Shown piece after piece: positions 15,286 through 17,502 of a stretch of DNA of 34,433 nucleotides. Source of the DNA: Candidatus Aenigmatarchaeota archaeon. GTDB taxonomy: Archaea > Aenigmatarchaeota > Aenigmatarchaeia > QMZP01. Within the stretch, counting starts at the first letter, position 1. The number at the start of each line of letters is the position of its first letter. A program made the translations under genes and the position numbers. The DNA lies in NCBI GenBank assembly GCA_038999435.1, contig JAVZYR010000002.1, forward strand, positions 1 to 34,433. Direction: 5' to 3'. The notes below the pieces were generated by a model, which was not told the DNA's origin, ran no database searches, and saw nothing but the letters and a program-made list of their open reading frames with translations.

Positions 15286-17502
15286 ATGAGATGTCCGTTC
15301 TGCTTTTCAGGTGAGACTAAGGTCCTGGATAAGCGTGAAGTAGGCAAAGGAAATAAACGAAGGCGAGAGTGCCTAAAATGCGGGAAAAGATTTACAACTA
15401 TTGAAAAGCTTGAAGGTTCTATCGTTACCCAGATCAAAAAGAGGGATGGCAGGATTGTGCCGTTTGACCAGGAAAGGATAACAGAGGCTATATGGAAGGC
15501 TGCACAGGCGGTTGGTGGTAAGGATAAGGAATTGGCAAAGCGGCTTTCTGACCAGGTTGTTAGGACGATCGAAGAAAAGTTTGGTGGTGTAACAATACCA
15601 ACCGTTGAGCAGGTACAGGATATTGTTGAAAAGGTGCTTGTTGAGAATGGTCATTATAAAACAGCCAAAGCATACATCCTCTACAGGGAACAAAAGGCAA
15701 AGATAAGACAAACAAAGGACGTTTTTGTAGATGTTGAGCAAACAATCGATAGCTACCTAAAACAATCAGACTGGAGAGTTAGGGAAAATAGCAATGAAGC
15801 GTACTCTTTTTCAGGCTTATTGTTATATGCAGCAGGAAAGGTTATGGCAAATTACAATCTTACAAGAATGTATACACCTGCAATAGCAGAGGCACATAAA
15901 AAAGGATATTTCCACATTCATGACCTTTCACATGGCGTGATTGGTTATTGCTGTGGTCATAGTCTTAAAAATCTGTTGCTTTGGGGTTTTGGTGGTGTGC
16001 CAGGAAAAGCAGACTGTAAACCTGCAAAGCACATGTCAACTATTGTGCATCAAATGGTCAATTACATCGGCTGTCTGCAGATGGAATTTGCAGGTGCACA
16101 GGCATTTAATTCTGTTGATACGTTGCTTGCACCTTTTGTTCGAGCCGATAATTTGAATTACAAGGAAGTAAAGCAGAATATGCAACAGCTAGTCTTTTCT
16201 CTAAACATACCATCAAGATGGGGTTCACAGTATCCATTTAGCAATCTCACATTTGATTGGACAGTACCAAAGGACCTTGTTGATCAAAAGGCTATAGTTG
16301 GTGGTAAGGAACAGCCTTATACATATGGCGAGCTACAATCTGAAGTAGATATGATAAACAAGGCATTTCTTGAGGTTCTGATGGAGGGTGATGCAAATGG
16401 TAGGATATTCACATTTCCCATACCAACATATAACATTACGAAAGGATTTGATTGGGAAAGCGAAAATGCCCAACTATTGTTCGAGCTGACAGCAAAATAT
16501 GGCAGTCCGTATTTTCAGAATTATGTTGGTTCTGATCTCGATCCTGGCTCAATTCGTGCAATGTGCTGTAGATTGAATATAAATCAAACAGAGTTACTGA
16601 GAAGGCCTGGTAATATGTGGGGCCCTGGTGACAGCACAGGCAGCATAGGTGTTGTAACGATAAATTTGAATAGGCTTGCCTATGAGGCAAGGGATGAGGC
16701 TGAATTTTTTGAGAAATTAAAACAGTACATGTTGCTTGCAAAGGATAGTTTAGAGATAAAGCGAAAGGTTATTGAGCAAAATCTTCAGAACAATCTCATG
16801 CCATATACAAGGCGTTATCTTGGCACATTTGCAAATCATTTTTCAACAATTGGTCTTTGCGGCATGAACGAAGCATGCCTGAACCTATTAGGAAAGGACA
16901 TAGCAAGCCCTGAAGGCAAGGAGTTGGCAATAAAGACGCTGAAATTTATGAGGGATATGCTTACTGAATTCCAAAAAGAAACAGGAAATCTTTACAATCT
17001 TGAGGCAACACCAGCTGAGAGCACATCATATAGACTCGCTCGACTTGATAAGCAAATGTATCCTGATATCATAACAGCAGGAAAGGATGTGCCATATCTG
17101 ACAAACTCTACACAACTTCCTGTTGATTATACAGATGACCTGATATTCGCGCTTAGGCATCAGAATGACATTCAGCCGCTCTATACAGGTGGAACAATAT
17201 TTCACACATTCCTTGGCGAGCGAATATCAGCAGAAGCAGCAAAGAAGATTGTAAGGTACATATCTCATAACACAAGGTTACCATACTTTTCAATTACACC
17301 AACATTTTCAGTATGCAAAGACCATGGATATGTGGCAGGTGAACACTGGAAATGCCCTGTTCAAACAAATGGGCATACATGCGGCAAGCCCTGTGAAGTT
17401 TTCAGCCGAATAGTTGGCTATTTCAGACCTGTGCAGATATGGAATGATGGCAAGCGAGAGGAATTTGGGCAGAGAAGAACATTTAGGATTGAAAATTTTT
17501 AG
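15286..17502 (+). CDS. nrdD: Anaerobic (class III) ribonucleoside-triphosphate reductase with N-terminal NrdR-like zinc ribbon and ATP-cone
   Basis: Start at ATG 15286 (MRCPFCF...). ATP-cone is [19 protein letters not shown]...[11 protein letters not shown]. The catalytic body follows. C-terminal Cys cluster is CKDHG...[14 protein letters not shown] and the glycyl-radical motif is RIVGYF. Confidence 0.92.
   Translation: [738 protein letters not shown]

Follow-up and report, generated by a model that had tools for sequence, protein, structure and literature searches.

The locus and the fusion gene

The window analysed here, a stretch of 34,433 nucleotides read on the forward strand from contig JAVZYR010000002.1 of a Candidatus Aenigmatarchaeota archaeon (assembly GCA_038999435.1), carries on its plus strand a gene (15286..17502) for a protein of 738 residues plus stop, in which an NrdR-type zinc ribbon, an ATP-cone of the NrdD (enzyme) type and the body of a class III ribonucleotide reductase (RNR) follow one another in a single reading frame. 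The control of deoxyribonucleoside triphosphate supply has been studied in two separate proteins: the enzyme itself, whose ATP-cone acts allosterically, and NrdR, whose ribbon and cone act on transcription. In the fusion protein the C4 ribbon spans residues 1-43 (15286..15414, plus strand, as are all parts of the gene), with Cys3, Cys6, Cys29 and Cys32 as its four cysteines; the cone spans residues 49-138 (15430..15699) and the catalytic body residues 167-733 (15784..17484), with the glycyl-radical residue Gly711 (17416-17418) in the motif RIVGYF and a C-terminal cysteine cluster. Two predicted NrdR boxes lie immediately upstream of the start codon.

Profile searches agree with this division of the protein. 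PF22811 (Zn_ribbon_NrdR, gathering cut-off 27.2 bits) matches residues 1-40 over model positions 1-42 of 42, with 55.0 bits when searched within the complete protein and 61.8 bits when the ribbon was searched by itself, whereas other zinc-ribbon families all score 18 bits or less; a generic zinc ribbon was ruled out on this ground. An earlier note on this DNA, made from the letters alone, had described residues 1-43 as the ribbon that defines NrdR; the residues it quoted agree exactly with the translation, and the full-length match recovers the same segment. The note had also called the NrdD body intact, with its RIVGYF motif and cysteine cluster, and here too the profiles concur: PF13597 (NRDD) aligns to residues 167-733 over model positions 1-562 of 562 (617.8 bits), and the scores of both the NrdD equivalog model NF006126 of NCBIfam (1028.7 bits, cut-off 548) and TIGR02487 (536.9 bits, cut-off 326.35) are above their cut-offs. 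Across 32 homologues R708, V710, G711 and Y712 are invariant and C677, C690 and C699 are conserved. Residues 49-138 match the Pfam ATP-cone model PF03477 with 85-89 bits. The NrdR equivalog model TIGR00244, by comparison, is not reached by the fusion protein (63.3 bits vs a cut-off of 124.65), the alignment covering model positions 1-95 only. Judged by its profile matches, the protein should be classed not as NrdR but as a genuine NrdD to which an NrdR ribbon has been added. Of the complete NrdR-like ribbon plus ATP-cone proposed in the note, the ribbon stands, but the cone is of the NrdD type and an NrdR-type cone is missing.

Among proteins of solved structure, E. coli NrdR (9gex/9fvr) is the best sequence match for residues 1-145 (E = 6e-15), and the alignment with the solved structures confirms the start of the E. 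coli protein as given in the note. An AlphaFold2 (AF2) model of residues 1-160 based on a 16-sequence alignment reached a predicted local distance difference test score (pLDDT) of 77, while a single-sequence run was poor (pLDDT 61). The top 13 Foldseek matches of the former model in the PDB are NrdR structures (E = 7e-11 to 2e-8), so that structure prediction of the N-terminus likewise leads to NrdR.

We place the start of translation at ATG 15286 because the homologues all begin M-[KR]-C-P. A start at the upstream TTG 15238 was ruled out for the same reason; the extension would also cross both boxes. The protein record of the window's NrdD in the survey described below (P0001) is 693 residues long and starts at Ile46, with ATC read as Met, and the ribbon is missing from this annotation. 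A Shine-Dalgarno-like GAAGGT stands directly before that start (window 15412-15423).

Relatives and conservation of the ribbon

Relatives were gathered in a protein survey (the 120 best matches among 5.8 billion proteins, taken as 90%-identity clusters and comprising NrdDs that are 67-89% identical) and in a survey of 80 loci from GTDB species genomes. Three architectures could be distinguished. In the S form, a separate nrdR of 146-157 codons lies directly upstream of nrdD or overlaps it (about 38 loci, including three from Muiribacteriota). In the F2 form, a full NrdR is in frame with NrdD, giving the order ribbon, NrdR cone, linker, NrdD cone and body in 855-887 residues, with 374-381 residues between the ribbon and the motif EFAGAQ (about 20 loci). 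The F1 form, to which the window and 14 further loci belong, consists of ribbon, one cone and body, with a ribbon-to-EFAGAQ distance of 264-271 residues. PF22811, PF03477 and PF13597 occur together in nearly all of the 120 nearest clusters, of which 72 are of the F1 and 33-35 of the F2 form; these counts hold for clusters at 90% identity, as at 50% identity the subgroup merges into a few clusters and most matches are cone-only fragments. The named members come from metagenome-assembled genomes (MAGs) of DPANN archaea (Aenigmarchaeota, Woesearchaeota, Nanoarchaeota and similar). Fusions were found in archaeal MAGs only, the three Muiribacteriota loci and locus L032 (labelled Aminicenantes) being of the S form; the labels Aminicenantes and, for fusions, 'Methanosarcinales' are suspected binning or naming errors.

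The nearest relatives of the window are labelled Aenigmatarchaeota (L001, 90%; L002, 77%), and the neighbours of the fusion gene in the window include genes for Rpb7 and S24e. Because the layout recurs widely, with over 70 independent clusters at 90% identity and 15 GTDB species genomes showing it, and the contig is archaeal by neighbours and relatives, the fusion is not an assembly accident, and an assembly or annotation artefact was ruled out.

The ribbon is strongly conserved in the F1 form. Among 18 F1 proteins, whose first 160 residues share 51-86% identity with those of the window protein, C3, C6, T11, V13, D15, K16, R17, R25-27, C29, C32, F36, T38 and E40 are invariant, and R35 is conserved in at least 90%. 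Cryo-electron microscopy and mutagenesis of Streptomyces coelicolor NrdR showed that D15 and R17 contact bases, and that R12, R26-29 and R37 contact the backbone (PMC9110341); the equivalents in the window protein are K12 (for R12), D15, R17, K24-R25-R26-R27 and R35. When the ribbon codons of the window were compared with those of three relatives, synonymous sites were saturated (proportion of differing synonymous sites, pS, 0.7-0.97), with a nonsynonymous divergence (dN) of 0.10-0.18 and a dN/dS ratio of about 0.05 in the two comparisons for which dS was computable. The low dN beside saturated synonymous sites indicates, at the level of codon comparison, that the ribbon is translated and under strong purifying selection. 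A start of translation after the ribbon, which the note had named as a way in which its proposal could fail, is not borne out as far as the sequence data allow.

Paired NrdR boxes in the promoter of the fusion gene

Upstream of the gene, a TATA-box-like element, TTTAAATA (15212..15219, plus strand), was read from the sequence and predicts a transcription start site (TSS) near 15240. Two predicted NrdR boxes, neither of them assigned to a strand, follow: box 1, ATTGCCATATATTGTATG, at 15237..15254, whose core CCATATATTG (15241-15250) has one mismatch to CWATATATWG, and box 2, AACGCTATATATAGTAGG, at 15267..15284, whose core CTATATATAG (15271-15280) is exact. The starts of the two boxes are 30 bp apart, and box 2 stops 2 nt short of the ATG. 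The DNA at 15238-15283, which had been singled out beforehand as the likely regulatory target, thus holds a pair of predicted NrdR boxes. The boxes score 10.4 bits (box 1) and 14.3 bits (box 2) with an 18-nt position weight matrix (PWM) that was derived from 81 boxes of other loci, the window excluded, using a training region of 130 nt upstream. The consensus of these 81 archaeal boxes is AacACaATATaTTGTGtT, in agreement with the bacterial NrdR box.

Within the 34-kb window, CTATATATAG is the sole exact match to CWATATATWG, and only four other sites reach 10 bits or more in the PWM scan. Cores with at most one mismatch are not enriched over the window as a whole (12 found vs 8.2 expected), and it is only the local pair that is significant: when the 158-nt intergenic region was simulated 20,000 times with a first-order Markov model, no pair arose at 29-33 bp and a single match arose in 0.5% of the runs.

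The arrangement is shared by most loci with a ribbon gene. Box pairs with a spacing of 29-33 or 40-43 bp occur in the 300 nt before that gene in 15/15 F1, 15/19 F2 and 27/33 S loci, against a rate of 2.25% in random windows; in the core-pattern scan across loci the spacing is mostly 32 bp, and four of the F1 pairs are outside the 130 nt on which the PWM was trained. By contrast, none of five archaeal loci whose NrdD lacks the ribbon and which have no nrdR upstream carries a pair (57/67 ribbon loci vs 0/5, Fisher p = 2e-4). Three loci that were first screened as ribbon-less do carry one; two of these (L058 and L067) have an nrdR-like ribbon upstream, and in the third (L050) none is detectable by pattern. 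The bacterial locus L059 has boxes without a local nrdR. Box 1 is kept in four relatives of the window (L081, L083, L086 and L002). Neither the 34-kb window nor 17 F1 flanks yielded a second NrdR-like open reading frame (ORF).

From the usual archaeal distance between TATA box and TSS, we infer that box 1 lies on the predicted TSS (about 15240), the place where archaeal repressors obstruct the polymerase, and one that agrees with the bacterial arrangement. Counted from the beginning of TTTAWAWA, the box-1 core mostly follows at 28-30 nt across loci (29 nt in the window), with side groups at 18-20 and 40-46 nt. These groups are roughly one helical turn apart, which suggests, tentatively, that the repressor has to approach TBP/TFB along a single face of the helix. 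The TATA element itself, taken as CTTTAAATAG (15211-15220), is a two-mismatch match to the NrdR core located exactly 30 bp upstream of box 1, and together with boxes 1 and 2 it makes three sites at 30-bp intervals.

Origin of the cone and of the short fusion

To distinguish the cones, hidden Markov models (HMMs) of NrdR cones and of NrdD cones were used, both derived from S-type loci with their separate genes. For the window cone the NrdD-cone HMM gives 158.0 bits and the NrdR-cone HMM 13.3 bits; the F1 cones are all of the NrdD type, and the F2 proteins hold one cone of each type. Since the F1 cone scores as NrdD type, the NrdR cone has been lost in F1, and the sequence comparison indicates that of NrdR the DNA-binding module alone was kept, without the sensor domain. 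The cone of NrdR forms a special class, in which ATP and dATP are bound at the same time and through which the tetramer that binds DNA is assembled (PMC9110341). The modelled cone of the window protein superposes best on RNR cones with dATP, namely those of L. blandensis NrdB (5olk; 41% identity, root-mean-square deviation 1.7 A), P. aeruginosa NrdA (5im3) and class III enzymes (9d3x/8p28).

Traces of how the F1 form could have arisen are visible around the cone starts. In the window's clade 12 residues separate RFTT from KK(R)DG, which is exactly the length of this linker in NrdR; between F1 clades it differs by several residues. In F2 proteins the two cones start exactly 112 residues apart and their first strands are near-identical, and in the F2 locus L008 the cone starts form a 17/19-nt direct repeat, GTCGTGAAGAAGGATGGCA and GTCGTAAAGAGGGATGGCA. 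A single recombination between such repeats would remove the NrdR cone in frame and convert F2 to F1. The scenario that we propose thus begins with an nrdR-nrdD operon whose genes would have fused into one reading frame, giving F2, after which recombination between the homologous first strands of the two cones would have deleted the NrdR cone and yielded F1, with the NrdR spacing from ribbon to cone kept.

A neighbour-joining (NJ) tree of the NrdD body, although crude, places F1 in at least three or four separate clades, with S and F2 intermixed, and the window adjoins the F2 loci L005, L008, L009 and L030. The tree fits repeated conversion of F2 to F1 and not F1 as the ancestor, so that, on present sequences, F1 is probably derived rather than ancestral. 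The suggestion that the fusion could be a relic of how NrdR arose from the N-terminus of an RNR is not supported, given the mixture of S, F2 and F1 on this tree and the repeat-deletion route from F2 to F1.

A probable self-repressing enzyme and the alternatives

Catalytic and NrdR-ribbon domains are present, at the sequence level, in one polypeptide whose own gene has a predicted operator. The identity of the ribbon, the selection acting on it and the boxes in its own promoter fit a self-regulating enzyme, and we consider it reasonably probable, though far from assured, that the window protein is a bifunctional class III RNR that also serves as its own transcriptional repressor, a "trigger enzyme". 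The earlier note had made this proposal as one of two readings, for a complete NrdR-like ribbon plus ATP-cone; the ribbon, its selection and the boxes support it, while the NrdR-type cone falls away.

One palindromic box needs two paired ribbons (PMC9110341; PMC12051234). In the mechanism that we envisage, the ribbons of two subunits would pair and bind the palindromic NrdR boxes of their own promoter; with the protein bound just after the TATA box, on box 1 at the predicted TSS and on box 2 30 bp downstream, RNA polymerase would be blocked. For P. copri NrdD, dATP shifts the enzyme towards tetramers with ordered pairs of stiffened cones (PMC11226230). In the fusion protein, dATP-loaded cones could likewise pair and drive the formation of tetramers, such that the same dATP signal would inactivate the enzyme, bring about ribbon pairing and shut off the gene. 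Both boxes would then be filled by a tetramer or by two dimers, and ATP would separate the ribbons and release repression. By analogy with these systems, we give roughly even odds to the proposition that dATP loading both inactivates the enzyme and brings the ribbons together on the boxes, with ATP separating them. That one RNR-type cone might hold two jobs, with dATP inactivating the reductase and pairing the ribbons, whereby the enzyme would settle on the promoter of its own gene, is put forward more tentatively, at odds a little short of even.

Several observations weigh against a self-repressing enzyme in this organism. The boxes of the window are weak, with 10.4 and 14.3 bits compared with 20-25 in many relatives, and their spacing is 30 bp where 32 is usual. 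The closest relative, the syntenic L081 (89% amino acid identity; L081:5800-6003), keeps box 1 only, at 12.4 bits; the operator may therefore be decaying, or control relaxing, in the window's sublineage, although the ribbon is intact. As to its surroundings, the box-2 region of L081 is replaced and shortened, and L083 and L086 (83-86% identity) have strong box pairs of 14-22 bits. No NrdR box was found by the PWM scan of the window upstream of the probable nrdG gene described below. The special cone that NrdR requires for its DNA-binding tetramer, and which takes up ATP together with dATP (PMC9110341), is absent in F1, which means that the control logic must differ and may have been lost entirely. 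The boxes could also be bound by the product of a separate nrdR that the F1 genomes encode beyond the window and flanks. Finally, two S loci (L010 and L014) fall inside an F1 clade on the crude NJ tree; this placement would require re-acquisition of nrdR or recombination, or is an artefact of the tree.

The main rival to a nucleotide-switched repressor is plain negative autoregulation, in which the ribbon binds the boxes without responding to nucleotides, the protein acting as a concentration-dependent autorepressor and the cone regulating catalysis only. The conservation of boxes and ribbon is expected equally under this explanation, the NrdR-type cone that confers control by ATP and dATP (PMC9110341) is absent, and the variation of the linker between F1 clades speaks against tight geometric coupling of ribbon and cone. 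However, the linker in the window's clade is exactly as long as that of NrdR (12 residues), and the NrdD core is already a dimer, so that the ribbons would always be paired and, barring some modulation, the gene would stay repressed at all times; we regard this rival as unlikely. Somewhat less likely still is that the fused ribbon is a leftover without DNA binding, or a structural zinc module, and that a separate NrdR encoded elsewhere binds the boxes. NrdR does act in trans in bacteria, the bacterial locus L059 has boxes without a local nrdR, and the search for a separate nrdR covered the window and the F1 flanks rather than whole genomes; within that scope, the 34-kb window and 17 F1 flanks, no second nrdR was found. 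A leftover would also be hard to reconcile with the retention of every DNA-contact residue over at least three or four F1 clades at a dN/dS of about 0.05, and with the 0/5 archaeal loci without a local ribbon that have boxes, which leaves no trans-acting NrdR evident in the group.

The remaining two explanations appear very improbable. The ribbon could act on RNA, with the protein binding its own mRNA leader and blocking translation, and it is true that box 2 ends 2 nt before the ATG and that the inferred position of the TATA box would put both boxes in the 5' untranslated region of the transcript. Against this, the target of NrdR ribbons is double-stranded DNA in a kinked form, to which they bind as a dimer (PMC9110341), and in many relatives the boxes are 80-200 nt away from the start codon. 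We assign a marginally smaller probability, the smallest of all, to the short fusion being ancestral, with free-standing NrdR having arisen from it by fission. The order of ribbon and then cone is indeed the same as in NrdR, but the F1 cone scores 13 bits with the NrdR-cone HMM against 158 with the NrdD-cone HMM, F1 is scattered among S and F2 over several clades at the tips of one NrdD subgroup, deletion between direct repeats offers a route from F2 to F1, and NrdR is near-universal in bacteria (PMC9110341) whereas the fusions were seen in archaeal MAGs only.

Comparison with known systems

The features shared with NrdR (S. coelicolor 7P37/7P3F; E. coli 9FVR/9GEX) include the N-terminal C4 ribbon, with D15 and R17 for reading bases and an RRR clamp for the backbone, the palindromic operator of 16-18 bp, two copies of which stand some three helical turns from each other at the promoter or TSS of an RNR gene, and, in the window's clade, the spacing from ribbon to cone. 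Unlike NrdR, the ribbon of the window is covalently part of the enzyme instead of free-standing and comes without the NrdR cone, and the protein stays below the TIGR00244 cut-off; unlike in the case of bacterial NrdR, the host is archaeal and the promoter is of the TATA/TFB type. With class III NrdD (P. copri 8P23/8P28; S. thermophilus 9D3X) the window protein shares the cone, the glycyl-radical body and the C-terminal Zn/Gly domain, but unlike these two enzymes it has 45 extra N-terminal residues that form the NrdR-type ribbon. Its cone has 30-33% identity to class III NrdD cones and superposes on most chains at 1.5-2.8 A. To our knowledge, no characterised NrdD has an N-terminal DNA-binding ribbon. 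The F2 and S forms of DPANN and Muiribacteriota belong to the same NrdD subgroup (63-90% identity) and have ribbon and boxes in common with F1, but they keep the NrdR cone and can thus work exactly as NrdR does, which F1 cannot.

Enzymes that act as repressors are familiar from other pathways. PutA is a proline dehydrogenase with an N-terminal ribbon-helix-helix domain that represses the put genes, and BirA is a biotin ligase and repressor whose adenylate product drives dimerisation and operator binding. Like these trigger enzymes, the fusion protein has a putative N-terminal DNA-binding module and a predicted operator in its own promoter, and, as in BirA, ligand-driven oligomerisation is the proposed switch. 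The folds are unrelated, however, and the ligand in the RNR case would be an allosteric effector (dATP/ATP) instead of a substrate or intermediate.

Novelty and implications

Neither a natural NrdR-RNR fusion nor NrdR in DPANN was found in the full-text-searchable literature, which leaves aside paywalled papers and RNRdb, and no text in that literature contains both NrdR and DPANN. The earlier note had allowed that the ribbon might turn out to be a common and already described feature of archaeal NrdD; common it is in this archaeal clade, but a description in the literature was not found. As far as can be told, the architecture is visible in database domain matches, yet undescribed. Some JGI records of these proteins are titled 'anaerobic ribonucleoside-triphosphate reductase/transcriptional regulator NrdR'. 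Recent papers on NrdR call it 'rare in archaea' or absent there, a textbook view that is contradicted by the present loci, in which a bacterial-type repressor appears on archaeal promoters in genome-reduced DPANN organisms. Annotation pipelines miss the ribbon, and the window's own protein is recorded without it.

The fusion joins the allosteric and the transcriptional control of RNR, and its short form drops the sensor of the repressor. With F1 one can ask directly whether DNA binding can be gated by a cone of the enzyme type, and in what way the pairing of cones is linked to that of ribbons, in a compact structural system of one protein, one 50-bp operator and two nucleotides. The series from S through F2 to F1 provides a clean example of stepwise domain economy. 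If our interpretation is correct, the window protein would be the first RNR trigger enzyme and a natural demonstration that an enzyme-type cone can replace the specialised cone of NrdR; NrdR-type control would be common, not rare, in DPANN, a large archaeal branch, where it would operate on TATA/TFB promoters, and the short form would have evolved repeatedly from full fusions.

Neighbouring genes and further observations

Downstream of the fusion gene, a gene of 229 codons (21091..21780, plus strand) probably encodes the activase NrdG, a radical SAM/Fer4_12 protein, as judged by context and domain content (PF04055, 91.8 bits; PF13353, 42 bits). An equivalent gene of 231 codons is located one to two genes downstream of nrdD in L083 and L086, followed by a DUF1858 gene. 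In the window, three genes stand between nrdD and the probable nrdG: one resembling leuA at 17526-19028 (minus strand), one with an FHA domain at 19202-20179, and an ORF without an assigned family at 20163-21077.

Three bacterial loci, L069, L075 and L079 from Candidatus Muiribacteriota, have nrdR and nrdD in one operon, the NrdD sharing 63% identity with the DPANN enzyme, with boxes 41-42 bp apart and not 32; these loci suggest gene transfer between DPANN archaea and these bacteria. Many loci, L019, L020, L022, L023 and L025 among them, contain DPANN-type genes under the title 'uncultured Methanosarcinales archaeon', and L032 is titled 'Aminicenantes bacterium'; naming or binning errors are the probable cause in both cases. 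Inteins (PF14890, PF14528) occur in the catalytic body of several fusion NrdDs, among them P0008, P0033, P0045, P0104 and P0119 and other matches longer than 1000 residues.

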